64,000 bases of DNA from positions 1 through 64,000 of IMG/VR virus record IMGVR_UViG_3300049200_000099. One strand, written 5' to 3'. The DNA is from a virus. The position numbers and the translations under genes are program-made. Of the stretch, positions 1,413 to 62,353 are shown piece after piece. How positions within the stretch are numbered: position 1 is the stretch's first letter; the number at the start of each line of letters is the position of its first letter. The notes under the pieces were generated by a model that was not told where the DNA came from, did no database searches, and saw nothing but the letters and a program-made list of their open reading frames with translations.

Positions 1413-3062
1413 ATGGCAAAAGAAGTAAATCAGGAGTCTCTTGACCTGTTAGGCAGCATTCAGCCAAAAGGTCAAGCAGATTTTACAACTGATGACATAG
1501 CTAATTACACTCCTCCTGACCTTACCACAGATCAGATGAATACTTATCGTCAGAGTCAGCAGACTCCGTCTACGGGTGCTTTGCCAAACTCTACGTATTA
1601 TCCCGATATGGGTAAGCAGATATCTGTAGGTGGCTATAGTGGAAGCCTCATTGGAAGCACTACTTTATTTGCGCCAGGCGGCGGAGTTGTTCCAATAGGA
1701 ATGATGGATGCGAGGGACCTAGCGGTACAAAAAGCTGCGATGCAAAAATCAAAAGAAATTGAAGATTTCAGAAAACAATTTCAGGCGCCAACAACAAAAC
1801 TTACAAACATTCAACCAGAGTTGAGCAATCAATATATCGATTATGTTCAAAAGTCATGGCAGGGAGCTCTACGTAAATCAGGCGGTGATGCCAAGATGGC
1901 CACAGAGTACTTAAAGAATGATAGTAATTTTGTAAAGAAGGAAAGGGCATATCAGGACCTTGCCCGTAACGGAAATGCTATAGTTGAAAAAATTGCCCAG
2001 GATGAAGAAGAAATAAAAACAGGAAGGTTTACACCCACTCCCGGATACAAAGAAGCGAAAAATAAAATAATGACAGCGCTGAATCCTTCTCATCCGGAAT
2101 TTCAGAATCTTGGGAATAATTTCAGGAAGTTGCAGGTTGAAAGGGATTTTGCGGATTCGTTTAATGATGTGACTAAAAAAATGGTTGCTGATCAGGCGGG
2201 TATTGCCTATGCCGATATTGACAGTAATCCGGAGTTTGCTAAAATCTACGAGGAAACTGTTAGTCAGTGGTCACCGGAACAAAAAGAAGCGGTAGCTAGA
2301 ACCCTGGAGCAAAACTTTTATCCTGGCAGCGATTACTGGACACCGGATCGTATTTCACAAAATGTTAGTGGGCTTATGTCCGGTAAACAGCAAAAGAAAA
2401 ATATTTCTCTAAACCAGAAGCATGAGGCCGATGGTGCTGGTTACAAATATGAAGATAGTGATATCTCCCAGGAACCAAGTTCAACTAATGTTTATACTAA
2501 AACAACCGGTGGTGGTTCTGCCCAGGGTGAGGTTGTTGGAGATTACGGCGTGACCCATAAAAAACCAATTAAAGCCATTGTTCCTAACGGACGCACAATA
2601 TATATAAACGATCCTGAAAAGGGGTTGATCAAAACTTCTGAGGTTAACCCAAATGCAGCAACTCAGCTTATTAAAACGCAACTGGTGAAGGTTTATGATG
2701 GTCCGGCTAAAGAACATGAAGGAACGCCTTTAAGCGAAGAGCAAATCAAATCAGGTCGTCCATGGAAATGGGGAGTAATGACTACCGGCGTAACAACAGA
2801 AGGAACCGGTGAAGATAAAAAGGAAACGCAATTTTTTATTCCAGCCAAGGAAGTTGAAAATATACTTGTAAAGAAAAAAGATCAAAAAGGTGCTGTTATA
2901 AACGGAGTACCTATTGATAAATTACAGACAGAAGCGGATAAGCGAAATTCTTCTAAAAAAACAGGTGGCACTTACACTATAAAAGGTAAAAAATATTCCC
3001 TATCAGCTTTGCAGGAAATGGGATATAACGAATCGCAACTTTCATCTTATAAAGATAAATAA
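1413..3062 (+). CDS. hypothetical virion-module protein
   Basis: 549-aa ORF. Its ATG directly follows the upstream TAA, within a same-strand packed block. Confidence 0.6.
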   Translation: MAKEVNQESLDLLGSIQPKGQADFTTDDIANYTPPDLTTDQMNTYRQSQQTPSTGALPNSTYYPDMGKQISVGGYSGSLIGSTTLFAPGGGVVPIGMMDARDLAVQKAAMQKSKEIEDFRKQFQAPTTKLTNIQPELSNQYIDYVQKSWQGALRKSGGDAKMATEYLKNDSNFVKKERAYQDLARNGNAIVEKIAQDEEEIKTGRFTPTPGYKEAKNKIMTALNPSHPEFQNLGNNFRKLQVERDFADSFNDVTKKMVADQAGIAYADIDSNPEFAKIYEETVSQWSPEQKEAVARTLEQNFYPGSDYWTPDRISQNVSGLMSGKQQKKNISLNQKHEADGAGYKYEDSDISQEPSSTNVYTKTTGGGSAQGEVVGDYGVTHKKPIKAIVPNGRTIYINDPEKGLIKTSEVNPNAATQLIKTQLVKVYDGPAKEHEGTPLSEEQIKSGRPWKWGVMTTGVTTEGTGEDKKETQFFIPAKEVENILVKKKDQKGAVINGVPIDKLQTEADKRNSSKKTGGTYTIKGKKYSLSALQEMGYNESQLSSYKDK

Positions 3063-6000
3063 TGGCCGGAGAAAATAAAGATAAAGATCCACTTGGAATT
3101 TTAGCTGCTGGTAGTGATACTAACAATACTGTGGACCCTCTTGGTATTTTGGATCAGCCATTAAAAAAAAAAGAACCTTTAGTATCGGAATCCACTACAG
3201 TTCCGGTGACACCCAATACCAGTGCTCCATCTGTTGTGGCGGGTGGTACATCAGGATTGAAATCAGAGCCATCAACATACCAGTGGGATCCAGCGAAGGA
3301 ACAACAGAGGATGTTCTCGGGAAACACGACTCAGCTGGGGAACAAGCTTGAGGTTGAAAAAAAGCCGTTAGCTGTAGGCACTACAGCATCTTCTCCTAAC
3401 CTTGGAACCGGAAATCAATCCGTCTTACGAAATCAGGTTAAAACGCAGCAAGATGCTGATGTAAAAAAAGTTTCAGATTATTACGATTCTTACCTAAAGA
3501 AAAAATCTGCTGCCCAATTACCTCCAACGGATGACGATTCTGTTAATTTTTACCTGGAGTACATAAAGGAAAACGATCCAGACGAATACAACTATACCCT
3601 TGATAAGTTTAAAAATTTATCGAATGACAAGGACAACACTTTGCTGTTTGAAAAATTCAAAGCGGAGCAAATGGAGAAGGCTTTAGCGCTCAAAACAAAA
3701 GCCTTTAGCGGCAAGTACCAGTTGGCGAAGAATAATATTGATAATTATTATAAAGATAAGCTGGATACATTTAAACAGGCTGACAATTCTTCCAGAAGTA
3801 TTGTTTCCGAAATTCAAAACATAGATACTCAGCTGGCTGGTTATGAAAGAGACCAAAATGGTGCCATAATCACTAATTCCGGTAACAGGAAAGAGGTTGA
3901 GAATTTTCTTAAAGAGCGTGAAACAAAAATAACCGAACTCGGATCTCATTCCAAAACTATTGAGGACTTAAAAGCTGATCAGGATTTTAATGATGCCGCA
4001 ACGCTTTTAGACGAGGTGAATGAGCAGTATAAAGATGTTGCCGGCAGATACAGATCGGTTGCAGAAAAGGATCCGGAAGCGTTTAGATCATTACCTGAGT
4101 TTCAGAAATTATTGAAAGAAAATCAAGCAACAAAAAGGCAACAAGAATTGGGAGGTTCGGTATCAGTAGCCGATCCAACAGGATTATCCCAGTCGATCGG
4201 AAGAGCGGTTACTAATTTTGCTTCTAAAATGGCCTTTGTTCCAAAATCGCTTACCGATAACTCTCAATACGGATGGACGGATAAGCTGTATGATGTAACA
4301 AAATCTTCAATAGATGACTTTAATGACGAGTACCAGTCACTGCCATCAGGGTACGAAAAGCCTATTCTGGAGAATGGCAATTGGAATTTAAAATATTTGC
4401 CGGCCAAAGTTGCTGGTACGGTTACTGATATGGGGTTAATGCTTATACCAGCAGTGGCTACCGAAGGATCGATAGCTGCCTTGGGTGTAACCGGTGACCT
4501 TGCATCCGGCATGGGCACATTTGCTTCTGGATACATGATGTCAGCTTCTGACTATTACGAACAGGCCAAACAGGCTGGACTAAGCGATAAGGAAGCTACA
4601 TCGTTTTCGCGATCAGTAGCTATGCAACAAGCGCTATTGGAATTGGTATCTCCAAATAAAGAGCTTTTAAAGCCCTCGTTGCTGAAAAAATCTTTTGACG
4701 ATGTTGCCTCAACCCTTGTAAAAGGAGCGTCTAAGAAGGAGGCGTTCATTGAAACAGCAAAAGAATTTTTAAATAAAACCGGAAAAGAGATTACCCAGGA
4801 AGAATTACAAACACTTGACGAGATTGTAAATAATTATGCGATCAACGAGGTTTCCGGAGCTAATGAAAGCGCCCGCCAGGGAATAGGTGAGCAAATGGTA
4901 GAGACTGCTATTATCACTGCCCTTTCTGCTGGTTTAATGTCAGGTAAATCTTCTGTAAAAACAAAATCTCAACTGTATAGCGAGTCGCTTTATATGGCTG
5001 CCAATAATCCTGAAAAAATGATGGAGACAATTGGTAGGCTGGTGAATGATGGTGCACTGCATCAAATGAAAGCGGATAATATTATCCAAAACATTGAAAT
5101 GGCCAGCCAGGCACTTACTAAAATTGATTCTAGGTTGCCTGATGATAAAAAGGCTAAAGCGCTTCCGTTGGTAATGGATAAGATGAAATTGGAAGAAGAG
5201 AAACGAAACCTTGACGCTTCGTTTCATGAGTCCAAAATGCAGGAGATAACTGAAAAAGAAGAGGAGATAAAAAAAATAGTTACTGGTGATTCCGATGTCG
5301 AGGCATCTCTTAAAGAAAAAGAAGAGTTGGATGATCTCCTTTGGGAAAAGGATAACGTTGGACTGAATACCGAACAGGAATCCAGGTTAACAGATTTATC
5401 TAAAAAATTAAATGTTGTTCAGGAAGAAAAGCAGGAAGGCGAGAAAGAAACTCCTGCTGCCAAAAAGGCAGAAAAAAAACCTACTGAAAAGAAAGAAAAG
5501 CCTGCCTCCAAAAAAGCTGAACTAACCAAAGAAATAAAAACGGAAGAGCCCTCTGTAGTAGTTGAGAAAAAAGAAGATGTTCCTGTTGCAGAAGAAGCCC
5601 CGGCCGAGATCGCTAAAGTTGAAGAGGCTGTAAAGCAAAACCAACTGGATTTTTTTAATGAAAAGATAACTGCCAAAGAATACAATGACAAAAATGATGA
5701 GTTACAGGAACAACTTAAACCAAAAATAAATGAAAACAAAGAAACCGAAAAAACCGATGAAGCCAAAGCCGAAGTATTAGATACTCCGGTGGCTGAAAAA
5801 AAAGTTACTGCTCAGGCAGTTTCAGGGACAACAGTTAAGGAGCCTTCTGTAAAAAAGGAGGTTCCTGTCACTGTTGTAAAAAAAGAAAAGCCAAAACAGG
5901 AATTGATCGATGAAGAAGAGGTGCTGGAATCTACAAAAGAAGATGATAAGGCTTCTGTTGATCGATTGAATCTTGATATGGAGGCCATGAAGCAGATTGG

Positions 6001-9946: not shown

Positions 9947-9954
9947 TATTTTTG
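9947..9954 (+). promoter_or_regulatory. candidate Bacteroidota -7 box TATTTTTG
   Basis: Matches TAnnTTTG in the 56-nt intergenic gap. Its G lies 5 nt before the ATG at 9959. Confidence 0.4.
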
Positions 9955-31164: not shown

Positions 31165-31191
31165 TTTGACTACCGAGCGATCCCCGCTACG

Positions 31192-31264
31192 TGGAGAGGG
31201 ATGGATTCGAACCACCGACCTTCTGCTCTTCAAACAGACGCTCTACCTGCTGAGCTACCAATCC
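31192..31264 (-). tRNA. tRNA-Phe(GAA)-like gene with imperfect acceptor stem
   Basis: GGATTGG TA GCTC AGCAGGTA GAGC G TCTGT TTGAAGA GCAGA AGGTC GGTGG TTCGAAT CCATC CCTCTCC A. The D, anticodon and T arms are canonical. Pairs 4:69 and 5:68 are mismatched. Confidence 0.55.
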
Positions 31265-33092: not shown

Positions 33093-33523
33093 CGTTTTCT
33101 GTTTTTATAATTTTCGTAAAGTTCCAAATGTGTTTGAAAAGTGGGCCATTGGCCGTCAAGGTGAATCATCTGTAGAATGCTTCCATATAAGTATCCTATT
33201 ATCAAAAGGCCAACGATAACGAATTCCATGCCTCTTACCCGGTAAACGGTGATCAGCCACACCAGCAAAAGCCATAGTGAAAGATAAAGGCTGCCATATA
33301 CAAATAAAACCGCTGCCTGTTTCCATTTGTTCTTCCGAATCACTCCAGAATAATATTTTTGAATTAAAGCCTGGTGCTTATGGTAGAGGTTTGTATTTCT
33401 ATTTGTAAAGTCTGGCTCCGGAAGAAGTGCCCTGATGACCACGTATGGAGAAACAGGATAATGGAATTGAATTCCTTCCTGCATTAGCATGTAATTTTTT
33501 AAATTGTCGTTATCGTTGTTCAT
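33089..33523 (-). CDS. membrane protein
   Basis: 144-aa ORF with hydrophobic helices (AAVLFVYGSLYLSLWLLLVWLI, FVIVGLLIIGYLYG). Confidence 0.5.
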   Translation of the reverse strand: MNNDNDNLKNYMLMQEGIQFHYPVSPYVVIRALLPEPDFTNRNTNLYHKHQALIQKYYSGVIRKNKWKQAAVLFVYGSLYLSLWLLLVWLITVYRVRGMEFVIVGLLIIGYLYGSILQMIHLDGQWPTFQTHLELYENYKNRKR

Positions 33524-34547
33524 TTTGTAAATGTTTAGCTAATAGATCAAGAAAGCCTATTTCGGCACAGCCTGCGTAGACGGAGTTTCCAATAGCACGA
33601 AGAAAATCTTCTCTGTAGTTGTGCCCATTAATTGTGCAACCCAGTGGGGGTTCAGCTTTCCCGTTGCTGAGTTGGGGGTGCTCCCATCCGAACTGAGGTT
33701 GTCCTCTTCCGGCGACCCTCGGAGTGGATTTCCTGATCCTCCCCACTCGCTCAGCGTACCAACGGAGTGACCTCCAAGGGCTGTCGGTGTCGGCCAGTTT
33801 TTGTTCACCGCTACCACTAAGTTTGGCGATCCATCCCGATTCTTCTGCGATACTCCCTTGATGTCCCTGGCCAATGGCGTTGGCCAATTCATCCGAACTG
33901 CTATCGATAGGTCCGGACCACAGCCGTTGCCCGTTTTGCCTTTGTGTCTCTCCTTCATCATTTTCTGATGTTCCAAAAAGTGTTCTACCGATTCCTGTCT
34001 CTCCCAAACGGAAGGTGTCGGCCAGGGCAAGGATGAAGAGTCGCTCTCGCTCTTGGGGAGCCCCAGCTTCTTCCGCAGAGTAAATTCCGCTCTCAACACG
34101 GTAACCAATTTCTCGTAAGCTATACTGTACCTCATCGTAACCCAGGGAGAGGTGTCCGGTGACATTTTCGAAGAAACACCAAACAGGTCGGATTGTATCA
34201 ACGTGTCTAAGTATATGTGGGAAAATGTGTCGAGGATCTTCTTTGCCTTTCCTTTTGCCGGCAGACGAAAATGGCTGACATGAATATCCGCCAAGGAGTC
34301 CGTGTATTTTTTTGCGAAAGTAGTGTGCAGGGAAGGTTTTAATATCCGACCACAGAGGCGCCGGATCCAATAAACCTTGTTCCATGCCATACATAAGGTT
34401 TTCAATGATAAAGGTTTCGATTTCCGAGTAAGCGGCAACTCTGAGTTTGGTGCCAAGTGCTGCTTCAACTCCTCTTTCGAGCCCAAGTATTCCGGGACAA
34501 AAGCTGATAATGCTGGGAGATTCGAAGGGATTATCCACATGGGTCAT
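33510..34547 (-). CDS. DNA (cytosine-5)-methyltransferase
   Basis: Motifs in canonical order: I FCPGILGLE, IV GYSCQPFSSAG, VI FFENV, VIII PQERERLF, X AIGNSV. Confidence 0.85.
   Translation of the reverse strand: MTHVDNPFESPSIISFCPGILGLERGVEAALGTKLRVAAYSEIETFIIENLMYGMEQGLLDPAPLWSDIKTFPAHYFRKKIHGLLGGYSCQPFSSAGKRKGKEDPRHIFPHILRHVDTIRPVWCFFENVTGHLSLGYDEVQYSLREIGYRVESGIYSAEEAGAPQERERLFILALADTFRLGETGIGRTLFGTSENDEGETQRQNGQRLWSGPIDSSSDELANAIGQGHQGSIAEESGWIAKLSGSGEQKLADTDSPWRSLRWYAERVGRIRKSTPRVAGRGQPQFGWEHPQLSNGKAEPPLGCTINGHNYREDFLRAIGNSVYAGCAEIGFLDLLAKHLQNEQR
33557..34540 (-). other. 327-codon ORF in the +1 frame of the C5-MTase gene (status unresolved)
   Basis: It has no stop for 984 nt. It carries three WPTP repeats and KLNPHWVAQLMG (motif IX-like). 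See findings. Confidence 0.25.
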
Positions 34548-53342: not shown

Positions 53343-53350
53343 TATCTTTG
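53343..53350 (+). promoter_or_regulatory. candidate -7 box TATCTTTG
   Basis: TAnnTTTG match whose G lies 5 nt before the GTG at 53355. The same 8-mer recurs at 54244-54251. Confidence 0.35.
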
Positions 53351-57380: not shown

Positions 57381-57448
57381 CGATGTTTAAAACCCGTTTT
57401 TTACTATTACGGTAAAAAATATGGAAAAGAACGTGGGGTAAATGTAAA

Positions 57449-57479
57449 CAAAAAACCCGGAAGTCTATCGCCGGGTTTT
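57449..57479. terminator. bidirectional terminator after gene 57507..57812
   Basis: CAAAAAA-CCCGG-aagtctatcg-CCGGG-TTTT. In minus sense the stem is followed by TTTTTTG. Confidence 0.6.
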
Positions 57480-57506
57480 AAGTATAAAACTAAGGTACCA
57501 ACAAAA

Positions 57507-57812
57507 CTAACACTGTTTTATCGCACAATTTATAAGCCATAGCTTATCGGTCGGCAAAAGATCATGATTTGGTAGTGGCGTTGCTAAATAGTTTATACGT
57601 GTCCATTGTCGCATATACTCATCCGGTTCAGGGTTGAGAATAGCTTTATGGAGCTCTAAACTCAGATCATTATAATCCTTTTGTGTTTTCGAAAGAAACG
57701 CCTTGTCATCACTGACCTTGTAGTACTTACCTACATCGTTGGCATAGCTTACGCTTGTTACGATCGCCACCAGGCAACCGATCAAGAGAGTAGCAAAAAT
57801 TGATTTTTTCAT
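57507..57812 (-). CDS. secreted protein (signal peptide)
   Basis: MKKSIFATLLIGCLVAIVTSVSYA, then a mature part. A LIGC lipobox-like site is also present. Confidence 0.55.
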   Translation of the reverse strand: MKKSIFATLLIGCLVAIVTSVSYANDVGKYYKVSDDKAFLSKTQKDYNDLSLELHKAILNPEPDEYMRQWTRINYLATPLPNHDLLPTDKLWLINCAIKQC

Positions 57813-57832
57813 GTGGATAAAAGTACACGGAA

Positions 57833-57863
57833 TTTGTTAAATAAAAAAATATACCTACTTTTG
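57833..57863 (+). promoter_or_regulatory. consensus Bacteroidota promoter (TTTG-N19-TACTTTTG)
   Basis: -33 TTTG at 57833-57836 and -7 TACTTTTG at 57856-57863, with 19-nt spacing. Confidence 0.55.
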
Positions 57864-57867
57864 TTGT

Positions 57868-57963
57868 GTCATCTGGCGATGATCAAATAAAAATTTTCTT
57901 TTCGGGAAACCGAGCAAGCCCACTTCCAAATCCGCCAGATGACCCGGTGGGTTTTGTGTTTTT
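57868..57963 (+). ncRNA. promoter-proximal hairpin RNA with U-run (sRNA or attenuator candidate)
   Basis: 11-bp stem 57868-57878/57933-57943 encloses a GAAA-capped hairpin (57902-57913). It is followed by ACCC-ggt-GGGT and TTTGTGTTTTT. Confidence 0.4.
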
Positions 57964-58250
57964 GGGGGTATGCTGAACGGACAACGGTGGCGGCATACCC
58001 AGCAGTGAGCTACCACGGGCACACATAACTCAAGCGGCGGCAGTGAAAGGGAAGAGCCGGTGTGAATAGGGCATGAAAACCTATGCTAAGTTGATCCCTG
58101 GCTACATCATACATGTGTGGTGTAGTCGCGCACAGTGGCTGTTCGGCTCGTTCAAGCAAGCACCTGGCGTGAAGTTGCCAACAGAAGATCAAGCGTCTTT
58201 TGGTAGGGCACTTCACGCAGTGGCCCCAGGGCGTTCTCTCATTTAGCAAA
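57964..58250 (+). ncRNA. GC-rich multi-helix RNA element (unclassified; leader or stand-alone RNA)
   Basis: Helices: 57966-57973/57993-58000 (8 bp), 58100-58106/58121-58127 (7 bp) and 58167-58175/58210-58218 (9 bp). No plausible coding frame. GC is clearly above the flanks. Confidence 0.4.
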
Positions 58251-58323
58251 CCTTTTTCTTTAAGTAACTAAAGGTAACCAAGTCAATAAAGTTTCAAGCC
58301 TGCGATTTATCGGTAATTTTTTC

Positions 58324-58331
58324 TACATTTG
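58324..58331 (+). promoter_or_regulatory. candidate -7 box TACATTTG
   Basis: TAnnTTTG match whose G lies 6 nt before the GTG at 58337. Confidence 0.3.
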
Positions 58332-58336
58332 TTTCT

Positions 58337-58612
58337 GTGAACTCTGGATGGAGAAAACTACGTGCCATTGTGTCTGGTTTTAAGAACTACCGTTTTAAAA
58401 ACGAATATTTCGAGAACCTGGCAAAAGAAAGGGCTAAAGTGTGCGCCGCATGCCCCGAAGCTAATCCAGAACATCCGTTTAAACTATTACTCGATGATAA
58501 CGTAACCGTAGAGCCAATAAAGGGCATGGGATGCAAAATATGCAATTGTTACCTGCCGGCAAAGGTGAGACAGGCATTCGAGGGATGCCCCCTTAAAAAG
58601 TGGAAAGAATAA
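58337..58612 (+). CDS. Cys-rich (zinc-binding-like) small protein
   Basis: 91-aa ORF with a GTG start. It contains CAACPEANPEHPF...GCKICNCY...GCP. Confidence 0.45.
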   Translation: MNSGWRKLRAIVSGFKNYRFKNEYFENLAKERAKVCAACPEANPEHPFKLLLDDNVTVEPIKGMGCKICNCYLPAKVRQAFEGCPLKKWKE

Positions 58613-58652
58613 AAGTTATTAACAATTTAATATTAAAAAATAAATTTAACCC

Positions 58653-59456
58653 ATGAAAAGACAAGATGCCATTATCCTTGAATCTGGCCGCCGCCAAATT
58701 CTTATAGATCACGCCAACCACTTTTTTCAACTATATGCCGGTACAATGAATGCCCAGGCTAAAATAGATATTAAAGCCGCTGCAACAGAAGCAATCACCC
58801 AGCTTCGTAATATTGAAGCTGAACTTTTTGATACGCTTTCAATCGATTATACACAAGGTGTTTACGATTCTGATGTTGCCTATATCAGCAGGGTAGCCAT
58901 TCCGCAGCAAGCCCTGGAGGACAATATGAGTTACTTTGGCCTGGAGATAACGGCGATCAAAGAAGCCCTTGAAGAAGAAATTGAACAGTTGCAGTTTATC
59001 AAAGATGTCGATGGTGAAGAAAATGGTTTTGTTGATAAAACCGGGGACTGGACAACAGCCGAAGAAGATGCCATAGTGGCCCTGGAGGACCTTATCACAG
59101 CAATAGAAGCAGCAAATAACGGTATCATTACCGCTAATATTGATCTTTCATTCCCTGATACCGCAACATCTGCCACCAATGCGCAGGACATATTTACTGT
59201 TGCCGGATCTGGCCTTGATGGTGATATCACAATAACTAAAGTGGGCGCCACTGCTGATCAGTGGAAATTCATGGATGAAGGTGCTCCGGTTGATAGTTTA
59301 ACGTTCTCTCCGGTAGACGGCGTAGTGGATACGGAAACAATTAATTTCAGGTTCCAGCCAACAACCGAAGGAGTAAAGGATATTACAGTTCGGATATCTT
59401 CCCCAGGAATGGCAGACATAGACAAAGTGATCACCGGAACCGCTATTGCTCCGTAA
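58653..59456 (+). CDS. hypothetical protein (paralogue of next gene at N-terminus)
   Basis: 267-aa ORF. The N-terminus MKRQDAIILESGRRQILID compares with MKRQNEILTLSTQRQRLLD in the next gene. Confidence 0.45.
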   Translation: MKRQDAIILESGRRQILIDHANHFFQLYAGTMNAQAKIDIKAAATEAITQLRNIEAELFDTLSIDYTQGVYDSDVAYISRVAIPQQALEDNMSYFGLEITAIKEALEEEIEQLQFIKDVDGEENGFVDKTGDWTTAEEDAIVALEDLITAIEAANNGIITANIDLSFPDTATSATNAQDIFTVAGSGLDGDITITKVGATADQWKFMDEGAPVDSLTFSPVDGVVDTETINFRFQPTTEGVKDITVRISSPGMADIDKVITGTAIAP

Positions 59457-59974: not shown

Positions 59975-62353
59975 TTGTCAGTACAAGAACATATACAAAG
60001 GCAAAGCAAGGTGGTCCGAGAAAACCACCTTGACTTTTTAGATCAACTCTATAGGAAGGGAGTGCCTCTTGTTGATGAGGATATCGCGCTTTTAAAAAAA
60101 CACGGATTCATAAAAGAAGAAAAGTATCAGCCTGCCGGCAAAGAGGATACTTCCCTGAAAGATTATATAAAAGATGATTTTTTAAAAACTACAGGAGAGC
60201 AGCGAGAACACGATCAGGATGTAGATATCCTTTTTGATGATAAGCAAGGAACATGCCCGCAAATTGTATTCAGTGAAGAACTGGAAGAGAGGCGCAAGAA
60301 AGGCGGATATTTATTCGAGGGACGCAATCAGGAGATCAATCGCCAGGAGTGGATGCCGGAATCCCTGACAAACCACGCAGCGGATTTTGTGGAATGGATA
60401 GACTCCATAAACTTTCTGGGCTTTAAAAAGAAAACCAACTACAGAAAATTTAATCTTTATGTACAGCAAGCCTATACCTGGTTGAATGAAAAAACAGAAT
60501 ATACAGAACATGACAACGAGGAGGACCTGGATGACTACAGGATGGAAGAACTTCGAAGGTGCTATGATAACACACTGTACTTTTTAAATAAATACGTTTA
60601 CTATAAGGAGGGTGATGATGAGTCGGGGCGCGTGAAGTATGTTGCTGCGCCGGCGCACGAAGTAATGGCATACCTAAACGACTGCGGATACTCCGTAGCT
60701 CTATTGAAGGCTAGGCAGATCGCAGCAACAACAACCCTGATGTCCTGTGATGTTAAAGATGTTGTGTTTAAGCGAAACCACTTCATGAAGTTCATCACCG
60801 AGGATCAGGAAAAAGCAGAAGAGATTTTCGAGGATAAACTTAAATACGCATTCTCCCAGCTTCCATACTGGATGAAACCGGATGTGATCAATGAGCGAGA
60901 TAATCTATTTAAACTCGGAAAAAAAGATGGCAAGGGTGAAAAAAAAGGTGTTAACTCCAGGATCCTGGTAGTGCCACCAAAACGAACAGCAGTTGCCGGT
61001 GGAGCCCCACAGAAAGTAAAAATAGATGAGGCTGGTAACATTGGTATCCTTTCTGTAATGATCAACAATGCCAGGCCTACAATGCTTTGGTTTAATCCAA
61101 AAACAAAGAAGCTGGAGATAAAACGTCAGCTATGGTTTTGGGGAACCGGTGGAGAGATGGAAAAAGGCGGAGCAGCATTCCAGTCAGAATTTATGGCCAT
61201 TGTTAACCAGTGGAAAGACAGGAATTTTGACTCTTGCATCATTCCGTTATTCTTAGACTGGACAGCAAGACCGGGTGCTACCCAGGAAGATTATGATCGT
61301 GAAAAGCGCGTTGCTTATAGCAAGGTGGGACTTGATCTTAAAAAATCCATTATCGAATTCCATCAGTCATGGCCACTTACAATGTCAGATGCCTTTATGA
61401 CCTCTGACAGAACACTCGTTGATACAGACTTTATAAATACTAATATAGAGCGCATCCGTACCGCGAAATCAAATGGTAAATTCCAGATTTTCCAACGCGG
61501 GTATTTTGAGCCGGTTTATGATTACACAGCACCAACGGATGAAAATTCAGATGTTCCATTCAAAATCATTGGGGCCAACTTCGTTCCTACAACAGATATA
61601 GACGAGCGGGCCTCGACGATAATTTTCATGCACCCAGAACATGACTGGAATAATAGATACTTTCAGGGCACCGATCCGATATCCTCAGATACCGGGCTTT
61701 CGAACATGGCCTCGGCAATTTGGGATAAACACCTAAAAACAGTGTCGGCAGTGATGGACTTCCGGACAAAAGATTACAGGTACGTATTCTTACAGTCAAC
61801 CTTGCTAGGGCTTTATTATGACACCAAAAACGAAGGAGGAGTGAATGAGCTTGTTGAAAGCAACATCGGACAGTCGTACACTCAATATAAAGAGGGCAAG
61901 GGGTGTGGTAACAAAATGACGCTTAATTACGAGCTACCTCCGTATCTGCAAAACAGAACAACAGTGAACGAGGGTGTTGGAATTGATAACCGGGGATTAA
62001 GGAATATGTCGATCATCAACAGGCTGCACGAATTGATCCAATCCTATGGTGACAAAAATTACATGGAAGTTTTCTGGGAGCAGCTGAAAACCTTTGTTTG
62101 TAATGTTTCAGAAAAATCAGGCAAAGAAATGTGGGGGCCTACCAACAGGAAGCTGTTTAAGGATGACGTTTTATTTGCAGTGGTTTATTCATATATTTGT
62201 GCTGAGCTGTGCCAATATCCTGAGCCGGAAAGCCTTAAACAAGAGGAAATGAGCTATGAAATACGTTACGAAACAATGTATGATGCCCAGTTTAATCTTG
62301 TAATGGTTCCAGTTAAAAGAATGGTATCCAAACATGGAAGAATTATTCAATAG
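59975..62353 (+). CDS. terL: terminase large subunit
   Basis: 792 aa. ATPase core LLKARQIAATTT...KVKIDEAGN, nuclease-domain start YFQGTDPISSDTGLSNMASAIWD, and a portal gene downstream. TTG start. Confidence 0.7.
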   Translation: MSVQEHIQRQSKVVRENHLDFLDQLYRKGVPLVDEDIALLKKHGFIKEEKYQPAGKEDTSLKDYIKDDFLKTTGEQREHDQDVDILFDDKQGTCPQIVFSEELEERRKKGGYLFEGRNQEINRQEWMPESLTNHAADFVEWIDSINFLGFKKKTNYRKFNLYVQQAYTWLNEKTEYTEHDNEEDLDDYRMEELRRCYDNTLYFLNKYVYYKEGDDESGRVKYVAAPAHEVMAYLNDCGYSVALLKARQIAATTTLMSCDVKDVVFKRNHFMKFITEDQEKAEEIFEDKLKYAFSQLPYWMKPDVINERDNLFKLGKKDGKGEKKGVNSRILVVPPKRTAVAGGAPQKVKIDEAGNIGILSVMINNARPTMLWFNPKTKKLEIKRQLWFWGTGGEMEKGGAAFQSEFMAIVNQWKDRNFDSCIIPLFLDWTARPGATQEDYDREKRVAYSKVGLDLKKSIIEFHQSWPLTMSDAFMTSDRTLVDTDFINTNIERIRTAKSNGKFQIFQRGYFEPVYDYTAPTDENSDVPFKIIGANFVPTTDIDERASTIIFMHPEHDWNNRYFQGTDPISSDTGLSNMASAIWDKHLKTVSAVMDFRTKDYRYVFLQSTLLGLYYDTKNEGGVNELVESNIGQSYTQYKEGKGCGNKMTLNYELPPYLQNRTTVNEGVGIDNRGLRNMSIINRLHELIQSYGDKNYMEVFWEQLKTFVCNVSEKSGKEMWGPTNRKLFKDDVLFAVVYSYICAELCQYPEPESLKQEEMSYEIRYETMYDAQFNLVMVPVKRMVSKHGRIIQ

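Follow-up and report, generated by a model that had tools for sequence, protein, structure and literature searches.

Betaproteobacteria-1 RNA (Rfam family RF02932) comes from a survey of 224 structured RNA motifs (PMC5737381) and is typed as "Gene; sRNA". Rfam has listed it since 2017, under a name taken from Betaproteobacteria, as an orphan motif of two hairpins; the main text of PMC5737381 does not discuss it, and elsewhere in the literature we found nothing beyond its listing. Here we describe a related RNA encoded on the plus strand at 57964-58255 of a 64,000-nucleotide (nt) stretch of viral DNA, positions 1 to 64,000 of IMG/VR record IMGVR_UViG_3300049200_000099 (hereafter, the window). 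The feature is real, and it is a strongly diverged long form, from Bacteroidota-type phages, of this known but uncharacterized family, whose true size and pseudoknots are newly described: the RF02932 motif is the 5' end, the first third, of a far larger RNA of ~250-300 nt with three pseudoknots.

Our best reading of 57964-58255 is a gene for an independently folding non-coding RNA of ~290 nt. A preliminary description of this locus had proposed a non-coding multi-helix RNA element, which is what we find on the plus strand. Among the roles it had offered, that of a stand-alone RNA survives best, while a role in packaging has no support and a riboswitch-like leader is a weaker rival. We assign a probability of about one half to an accessory RNA gene that acts as RNA and is not a control element of the packaging genes. 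For annotation, the locus would be a non-coding RNA gene with an upstream leader carrying a terminator-like stem, and not a packaging-gene leader.

Homologues and the pseudoknotted 5' core

The window phage encodes a distant large terminase (792-amino-acid (aa) open reading frame (ORF) 59975-62353, PHROG matches); uncultured phages provide over 300 homologues, and several of their contigs measure 70-75 kb. The best homologues are only ~65% identical, and a single-protein scan of IMG/VR gave no closer relatives. In total, 175 related loci were collected. Related contigs derive from metagenome-assembled genomes labelled Kordia, Flavobacteriia, and Ignavibacteriae, and the intergenic signals of the window phage are of the Bacteroidota type (TTTG..TAnnTTTG); the hosts appear to be Bacteroidota or related bacteria of the FCB group.

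Seven related Bacteroidota-type phages carry homologues of the RNA. An nhmmer search linked the window element to locus L085 (E 0.003) and L085 to a conserved intergenic block common to L001 and L003 (E 3e-6), and profile searches added L166 and L164. A covariance model built from a 6-sequence alignment (R1) recovered all its training sequences and gave two new matches, L027 (E 1e-10), where the terminase is only 42% identical, and L088 (E 5e-7). Two of the RNA-bearing loci, L085 and L088, come from metagenome and genome scans. Fixed-spacing DNA patterns returned L027 again together with one false positive (L181), and the zinc-finger protein encoded next to the RNA, used as an anchor in IMG/VR, led only to already-known loci.

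The sequence variation across the element follows a pattern of compensatory base pairs. In the 8-sequence alignment with 42 pairs, 97.0% of the cells are paired, compared to 66% in shuffled alignments and 32-48% when the partner strand is slid; 34 of the 42 pairs have changed on both sides, and none of 500 shuffles reached the observed values. The 6-sequence alignment behaves similarly (38 pairs, 96.5% of cells paired against 66% shuffled and 30-48% slid, 31 pairs changed on both sides). These structure alignments were made by hand and padded with Ns so that MAFFT kept them, and the pairs were then counted by a tool. In an unedited MAFFT alignment of 17 independent IMG/VR sequences, 84% of the cells at 23 pairs are paired (59% shuffled, 35-45% slid), and 19 pairs have changed on both sides. 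L027 and L088, which the covariance model had brought in, are the only members that played no part in deriving the structure; judged by eye, they keep every helix including the pseudoknots, the third of which (PK3) was seen after they had been added. The compensatory evolution spans phages whose terminases are only 42-65% identical, and intricate folds kept at ~40% terminase identity usually imply catalysis, ligand binding, or particle assembly.

The fold comprises eight helices, with three of the interactions being pseudoknots. In the 5' core, the hairpins Pa, H1, H3, and H4 are locked by pseudoknots between the Pa and H1 loops (PK3), between H1 and H2, and between the H3 loop and the strand after UAAGUUG (PK2). 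This core is compact and multiply pseudoknotted, and contains invariant unpaired nucleotides; in alignment A9, U68, A69, C70, G74, and G76 are invariant. Hairpin Pa is formed by GGUAUGC (57967-57973) and GCAUACC (57993-57999) around a 19-nt loop, UGAACGGACAACGGUGGCG. It had been recognized earlier as the helix GGGUAUGC/GCAUACCC (57966-57973/57993-58000), and all seven of its counted pairs covary. Helix H1 (UGAGCU at 58006-58011, AACUCA at 58027-58032; 94% of cells paired) carries a loop with the conserved UAC...GGG. The two loops meet in PK3, where GUGG of the Pa loop (57987-57990) pairs with CCAC of the H1 loop (58013-58016) in 100% of the cells, and three of the four pairs covary over the eight sequences. 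The variants of this pairing are GUGG/CCAC, UUGG/CCAA, CUGG/CCAG, GUAG/CUAU, GCAG/CUGU, UUUG/CAAA, and CCUG/CAGG.

Helix H2 (CACAC at 58020-58024, GUGUG at 58060-58064) is knotted with H1 and encloses H3. All five of its pairs covary, both in the window group, with 95% of cells paired, and in the unedited alignment of the independent sequences, with 61%. Hairpin H3 ((G)CGGC at 58034-58038, GCCG at 58056-58059) has the purine-rich loop GGCAGUGAAAGGGAAGA and pairs in 97% of the cells in the window group and 87% in the independent set. In PK2, GGGAA of this loop (58049-58053) pairs with AUCCC (58094-58098), which follows the conserved UAAGUUG; 97.5% of the cells pair and four of the five pairs covary, the variants being GGAAU/AUUCC, GGAAC/GUUCC, GGAAA/UUUCC, GAAGA/UCUUC, and GGAGA/UCUCC. 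By eye, the same pairing is seen in high-GC members of the family, e.g. as GGUGU/ACACC or GAUCA/UGAUC. Hairpin H4 (AUAGG at 58066-58070, CCUAU at 58080-58084) pairs in 100% of the cells, with five of five pairs covarying; the window sequence could also pair in another register, GCAU/AUGC.

The three pseudoknots and the helices H1-H4 (58006-58098) are additions to the preliminary description. One of its proposals has to be given up, namely, a closing pair CCCUGG/CCAGGG (58096-58101/58226-58231). It is unsupported, because its 5' strand overlaps both the PK2 strand AUCCC and H5, and relatives have no consistent counterpart: candidates for a long-range helix closing the 3' domain, this pair and its analogues, lie at inconsistent positions among the members.

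The 3' domain, strand, and composition

The 3' domain consists of H5, a small hairpin, and a large hairpin H6 flanked by two near-identical direct repeats. H5 (58100-58112 GGCUACAUCAUAC, 58115-58127 GUGUGGUGUAGUC) has 13 base pairs (bp), including three G.U pairs, and covaries; its base, GGCUACA/UGUAGUC (58100-58106/58121-58127), is one of the helices proposed earlier. The small hairpin with repeat 1 occupies 58137-58164 (GGCUGUUCGGCUCG followed by UUCAAGCAAGCACC at 58151-58164). H6 pairs 58167-58175 with 58210-58218, and 3 bp may be added (GCGUGAAGU(U)GCC ... GGCACUUCACGC). This helix, previously given as GCGUGAAGU/ACUUCACGC, lies outside the formal pair count; it is present in minimum-free-energy folds, and every relative has an equivalent hairpin at the same position. 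The ..CUAUGC.. on the 3' side of H6 is conserved family-wide. The repeat 2 region, 58233-58252 (GUUCUCUCA followed by UUUAGCAAACC at 58242-58252), marks the 3' limit of the conserved RNA.

The repeats flanking H6 are imperfect and direct. They are found in every member and are near-identical within a genome and different between genomes. In the window they read GGCUCG+UUCAAGCAAGCACC and CUCUCA+UUUAGCAAACC, the counterparts of GGCUCCG+X and YUCACCA+X in the wider family; in other members, repeats 1 and 2 are CCGAUGAGCAAGC and CCAAUGAGCAAUC (L201), CCGGGAGUCAAAC and CCAAGAGUCAAAC (L191), and CCGAAAAGCUAUUAG and CCAAAAAGCUAUUAG (L196). In the high-GC members, repeat 1 closes a small hairpin (GCUC-CGNN-GAGC), and repeat 2 pairs with the strand just upstream, forming a hairpin whose loop holds the conserved CUCACCA. 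An RNAduplex search for a common complementary partner of the repeats in the window group gave no consistent one. The repeats may be a single small hairpin present twice, a switch with two stable states, sites of processing, or strands that pair between molecules. In L234, a tandem array of ACUGUAGUUAC and CUAGUUAC units directly follows the RNA, on the minus strand of the locus ~200-330 nt after the RNA start.

Such an arrangement could belong to a self-processing or self-assembling RNA. In the former case, the core would be a ribozyme or would recruit a host RNase, and cuts at CCG+X and CCA+X would release the H6 domain; in the latter, the duplicated strands would mediate intermolecular pairing and yield an RNA multimer, as in GOLLD and ROOL. 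The family-wide identity of the repeats within genomes and their divergence between genomes would fit this, as would the conservation of CACCA before repeat 2 and the compact core with its invariant unpaired nucleotides. GOLLD and ROOL share the phage association and the proximity to tRNA genes (PMC5737381) and are described as homo-oligomers in PMC12286853. On the other hand, we found no guide-like sequence complementary to the repeats and no match to a known ribozyme family (Rfam, window and relatives), and the repeats are explicable as two copies of one small hairpin. We consider self-processing or self-assembly rather improbable. It is likewise doubtful, at about the same level, that the family constitutes a new class of large functional RNA in phages of several phyla, either as a unit that excises H6, with a ...CACCA 3' end in many members, or as domain-swapped multimers.

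The RNA is assigned to the plus strand because the G.U pattern, the promoter, and the U-tract described below all point to that strand. In the 8-sequence alignment, G.U pairs account for 17 cells of the compensatory helices and non-standard pairs for 10 at most overall, and the G.U pairs of H5 would become A.C mismatches on the opposite strand. The predicted pairs of the 3' domain are ~13% G.U, which speaks for selection on RNA and not on duplex DNA. The plus strand also folds better than dinucleotide shuffles (z = -2.2; z = -3.2 with a cruder shuffle), while the minus strand does no better than its shuffles (z = -0.5 and -0.9).

These G.U-rich compensatory helices, together with the pseudoknots, make it very unlikely that the element is a DNA-level site, i.e. 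a pac, cos, or terminase-binding site or an origin of replication, with incidental RNA folds. The idea has some appeal, as in the window group the element adjoins the terminase module, its layout of direct repeat, inverted repeat, and direct repeat resembles that of known pac/cos sites, and the L004/L169 contig ends 1.3 kb upstream of the zinc-finger gene. However, three covarying long-range pseudoknots would be meaningless for duplex DNA, elsewhere in the family the RNA adjoins replication or DNA-modification genes, and close relatives with the same terminase lack it.

As the preliminary description had noted, the element is GC-rich: its G+C content is 54-55%, compared to the 40.9% mean of the window. 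Sliding windows across 57900-58199 have a GC fraction of 0.53-0.55 (window mean 0.409), and 57964-58255 ranks within the top three 290-nt stretches of the window. The GC-richest 290-nt stretch (58%) is at 33550-33950, inside the minus-strand ORF 33510-34547. The earlier view that the element has no credible ORF, and that a 79-aa minus-strand ORF is noise, also stands: at E<=1, Pfam matches none of the ORFs over the element, three of which lie on the minus strand (79, 55, and 47 aa) and one on the plus strand (57 aa).

The elevated GC content is also what might suggest a captured host fragment or the functionless remains of a decayed gene. This explanation is hardly credible. It is contradicted by the covariation across phages with such diverged terminases, there is neither a conserved ORF nor a Pfam match, and the family occurs in at least 55 viral contigs. 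The preliminary description had suggested a captured foreign fragment, and of this we see no sign: the element has no second copy in the window (E<0.5), BLASTN with it against 50,697 phage records gave no match, and it is inherited among related phages.

Relationship to RF02932 and the wider family

The window sequence itself matches no known family. In an Rfam scan of 57400-58800 (4227 families, E<=10), nothing was found within 57964-58255; RF02932, with a gathering threshold of 49.4 bits, gave no match at E<=10 either. The absence of a known match in the preliminary description thus holds for the window only, as two of its homologues do have one. The RF02932 model matches L164 at 2784-2886 (41.7 bits, E 1e-4) and L027 at 1831-1945 (33.3 bits, E 0.01), significantly yet below the gathering score, and both matches lie exactly on Pa, H1, and the start of H3.

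Accordingly, hairpin 1 of RF02932 is Pa and its hairpin 2 is H1. Hairpin 1 has a loop of ~19 nt with the consensus GGuCGG...ACggCAGC, to be compared with GGUCGGUUUAAUGACGGUAGC in L164 and UGAACGGACAACGGUGGCG in the window. For a hairpin 1 with a loop of ~19-21 nt, Pa (57967-57999) has the right size, a covarying stem, and the retained CGG...ACGG.GG positions. The loop of hairpin 2, ACUGUGGG, corresponds to ACCACGGG in the window, and the following ..GGUGGC.. to GCGGCGGCAG. In the family, the loop starts with (U)ACNNNGGG and a purine-rich GG.GGC comes next; H1 (58006-58032) has ACCACGGG.. and then AGCGGCGGCAG. Moreover, the RF02932 loop consensuses (..ACggCAGC and aCUGuGGG) contain the CAG/CUG complementarity that constitutes PK3.

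A narrow DNA pattern, GGTCGG-N6-9-ACGGYAG-N18-36-ACTRTGGG, occurs in 55 IMG/VR contigs of 5-170 kb, far above chance. By eye, nearly all of them show the order Pa, H1, H2, H3, H4, H5, and then the conserved GGCUCCG, with the H3 loop pairing after AAGUAG or AAGCAG; the Y/R positions of the pattern, which belong to PK3, co-vary. When 20 of the 55 contigs were scanned with RF02932, six passed the gathering score at 84-96 bits and represent a shorter form; the remaining scanned contigs carry the long form, missed by the RF02932 threshold. Bona fide RF02932 members in viral contigs also have the 3' domain with GGCUCCG+X ... CACCA+X. The RNA is widespread in uncultured phages, with 55 viral contigs recovered by this one pattern and, in addition, the diverged branch in ~73-kb phages, apparently of Bacteroidota.

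The two groups were also compared by covariance models. R1 recognizes only two of the 55 contigs, as it was trained on an AT-rich subgroup. A second model, R2, was built solely from the 17 long-form IMG/VR sequences, without the window group. R2 finds five of the eight window-group members at the right coordinates, L164 (E 3e-15), L027 (4e-14), and L088, L001, and L085 (3e-5 to 7e-5). The window was matched at 57965-58073 only with filters off (12.8 bits, E 0.0055), as the top match in 14 kb and in the correct register.

The features of the long form (PK3, H1/H2, PK2, H3-H5, and the 3' series of repeat, H6, and repeat) are all found in the window. Compared by sequence and predicted structure, the window RNA is related to RF02932 as a long form that has diverged very far. 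It does not reach the curated threshold, and a chain of significant matches links it to that family: L164 and L027 match RF02932, and the wider family connects to bona fide RF02932 members. The differences are those of size and host. The Rfam model has 120 positions and two hairpins, whereas the RNA described here has ~290 nt with H2-H6 and three pseudoknots; the window represents the long form (with H4, H5, and a bigger H6), missed by the Rfam threshold even in high-GC phages; and the hosts here appear to be Bacteroidota or FCB-group bacteria, not Betaproteobacteria.

Transcription, gene neighbourhood, and comparison with known RNAs

Upstream of the RNA, a Bacteroidota-type promoter, TTTG-N19-TACTTTTG, lies at 57833-57863 on the plus strand. 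Of only six full-motif matches in the window, it alone is intergenic; equivalent motifs stand before the leader in L001, L085, and L027, and the RNA-bearing transcript likely starts here. A conserved leader of ~95 nt follows (module A, 57870-57963, plus strand). It comprises a helix P1 (CAUCUGGCG at 57870-57878, CGCCAGAUG at 57933-57941), an inner hairpin (CGGGAAACCG, 57903-57912), and a terminator-like T stem (CCCAC at 57919-57923, GUGGG at 57947-57951) with a U-tract; a simple terminator scan flags 57941-57953. In a hand-made alignment of module A from seven phages, with pairs counted by a script, 99% of the cells pair and 17 of the 18 pairs are compensatory, compared to 40-51% with the partner slid. 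The 3' strand of P1 falls within the loop of the T stem; this topology is unusual and could render termination conditional. As the RNA begins where the U-tract ends, there is no room for a promoter of its own, and it is therefore probably made by read-through.

Downstream of the RNA and outside it, a TAnnTTTG box (TACAUUUG, 58324-58331, plus strand) lies 5 nt ahead of GTG 58337, the start codon for a 91-aa zinc-finger protein, and probably serves as promoter for a nearly leaderless mRNA of that gene; in the sequences of six relatives, such a box was read 0-8 nt ahead of the zinc-finger start codon. In L027, a full promoter, TTTG-N20-TACATTTG, follows the RNA and precedes an exonuclease gene. 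As the promoter-like box is only 5 nt upstream of GTG 58337, the element need not be the leader of that gene. The preliminary description had placed the element between a strong promoter and this GTG: the promoter is confirmed, while the direct adjacency is not, as the leader intervenes on the 5' side and the box on the 3' side. In the window as a whole, plus-strand TAnnTTTG boxes at 9947-9954, 53343-53350, and 58324-58331 are found 4-5 nt before the starts 9959, 53355, and 58337, so that this phage may have mRNAs with no leader or almost none.

In L085, L001, L003, L166, and L164, as in the window, the RNA follows a divergent promoter region and the short leader, and precedes a conserved gene for an 87-92-aa zinc-finger protein, which opens the late gene cluster containing the terminase. 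The terminase homologues P0039, P0061, P0066, P0067, P0082, P0089, and P0098 have ~1160-1190 aa, compared to ~790 aa; given their matches to PF14528 and PF14890 (intein / LAGLIDADG), we consider them intein-containing large terminases. Across the family, the downstream gene varies and may encode a primase/helicase, a DNA methyltransferase, a Mom-like, a vWA-like, an exonuclease, a large terminase, or a head-tail adaptor protein, and no protein family is common to all the RNA neighbourhoods. The next start codon lies ~80-90 nt downstream of the RNA in those high-GC members that were inspected. The earlier link to packaging genes is hence not general, and appears to be positional only.

The RNA is absent from the close relatives L002, L165, L167, and L172-L175. 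The preliminary description had held absence from close relatives with the same gene order against a functional element; several such relatives indeed lack the RNA, and seven other phages conserve it. In L002, module A is followed by five tRNA genes (Pro, Gln, His, Arg, and Leu; 2896-3468); the 2972-3164 spacer between tRNA-Pro and tRNA-Gln is a GC-rich stretch of ~190 nt. L165 and L173 keep module A without the RNA. Homing-endonuclease genes occupy the slot in L165 (GIY-YIG, 2288-2923) and L175 (faint HNH, 2468-2959), and on account of these insertions we regard the slot as a hot spot at which accessory cargo is inserted. In L167 and L172-L174, the sequence at this position is unrelated. L167 (2740-2830) and L174 (3020-3110), both relatives without the RNA, have in common another conserved intergenic block, ccctacca.tggacgggt.tcatgc.gttcgggcgagccttt....

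According to ARAGORN, a permuted transfer-messenger RNA (tmRNA) is encoded just upstream of the RNA, on the opposite strand, in L001 (3677-4160, minus) and L003 (3712-4204, minus). Permuted tmRNAs are also predicted in L032, L041, L047, and L062, and the predicted genes of both sets have plausible ...AKLAA tags. The Rfam tmRNA_permuted model, with a gathering score of 47, gives these tmRNAs just under that, 39-42 bits; no such gene is seen in the window phage. In the window, ARAGORN finds no tRNA or tmRNA at the element, and the sole tRNA gene is tRNA-Phe (GAA) at 31191-31264 (minus strand).

The patchy distribution, the tRNA genes in the slot of a sister phage, the unrelated neighbours, and the separate downstream promoter are our reasons for considering the element an accessory RNA gene. 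The RNA would be transcribed from the 57833-57863 promoter as a continuation of the leader, whose terminator-like stem probably gates the amount of RNA made. It would be accessory phage cargo, comparable to the tRNA and tmRNA genes that relatives have at or next to this position, and its action would most likely be that of the RNA itself, exerted in trans or by serving as a scaffold or catalyst.

Several points weigh against this reading. The main alignments, A7 and A9, had been adjusted manually to match the structure; the independent model R2 recognizes the window weakly (E 0.005), and the membership of the window in the family relies mainly on the chain through its seven relatives. BLASTN searches of the 50,697 phage records with two further family members gave no match either, so that no cultured phage with the RNA was found, and we infer the ends, stability, and expression of the RNA from the sequence. 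In addition, the RNA is co-oriented with the next gene in every inspected locus, often heading an operon, which fits cis regulation as well. Finally, no intrinsic terminator was found 3' of the RNA; transcripts that pass the leader therefore continue into the late genes, and the RNA is physically also a long leader.

The last two points would be expected of a cis-acting leader, in which the RNA and module A control the downstream operon as a ligand- or factor-dependent switch or by processive antitermination of the HK022 put or EAR kind; antitermination would let RNA polymerase pass the leader terminator and the long late operon. The frequent position directly after a divergent promoter region agrees with this, the conserved terminator-like stem of the window group with the P1 strand in its loop suggests a conditional terminator, and the duplicated strands of the 3' domain (X1, anti-X, and X2) could form alternative helices. 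Still, the controlled genes would be unrelated (primase, methyltransferase, Mom-like, exonuclease, terminase, and adaptor), close relatives with the same late operon do without the RNA, and in the window group a promoter box stands between RNA and gene. No expression platform overlaps a ribosome-binding site or terminator, and ~290 nt with three pseudoknots exceeds most riboswitch aptamers. We regard a cis-acting leader as a tentative alternative, unlikely but second to the accessory RNA gene. A generic metabolite riboswitch is not supported, given the diversity of the downstream genes and the lack of a terminator or ribosome-binding-site overlap.

Several known RNAs were considered and rejected as identities of the element. 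The window contains ..AAAGGGAAGAGCCGGUGUGAAU.., which resembles a cobalamin riboswitch; there is no Rfam match at E<=10, and GGGAA, a segment left unpaired in the cobalamin riboswitch fold, pairs with AUCCC here and covaries. The look-alikes of the cobalamin riboswitch and of RNase P CR-I (GGGAAG..GGUG.GAAU in the window, GAAAGUCC in L001 and L003) have no covariance-model support and are not conserved. The strand order of H1, H2, and H3 is that of P3, P7, and P8 in group I introns. However, the 5' strand of H1 is separated from that of H2 by only 8-11 nt, and H3 is followed after 0-4 nt by the second strand of H2; neither a P4-P6 domain nor a J8/7, which has about 6 nt in these introns, is present, and there is no Rfam intron match. 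A template repeat of a diversity-generating retroelement was discarded, as no second copy is present in the window at E<0.5.

The likeness to tmRNA and tRNA lies in the same or adjacent slot in relatives and in the CACCA near the 3' end of high-GC members. The RNA differs in having no T-arm, acceptor pairing, or tag frame, and its pseudoknots are interleaved and not serial; ARAGORN and Rfam (E<=10, 57400-58800) are negative for the window, although relatives encode a permuted tmRNA next door. Like the phi29 pRNA, the RNA is phage-encoded and structured. There is no Rfam match to pRNA, the family is not tied to packaging genes, and the architecture of pRNA is unrelated. A survey of 10,000 viral structured-RNA candidates has motifs upstream of terminases; these could not be mapped to the window RNA.

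Among RNAs of late-operon antitermination, the "6S" leader of lambda PR'-tR' and HK022 put may be likened to the locus, where a strong promoter has a terminator-like stem with a U-tract within ~100 nt, upstream of the late operon of packaging and structural genes, and a structured RNA stands at the head of a long operon. They differ in that no Q-like protein and no qut or put sequence was identified here, and in that our RNA comes after the terminator, not before it, and is missing from L165 and L173, which keep the leader.

GOLLD and ROOL, with 500-800 nt, are larger. Rfam scans of the window and its relatives showed no sequence or covariance-model similarity to either of them. The resemblance is one of kind and setting: GOLLD and ROOL are large, intricately folded RNAs, often encoded by phages or prophages and near tRNA genes (PMC5737381), and PMC12286853 describes them as forming multimeric cages; in the window group, likewise, sister phages have tRNA genes at this position, and tmRNA genes are encoded beside it.

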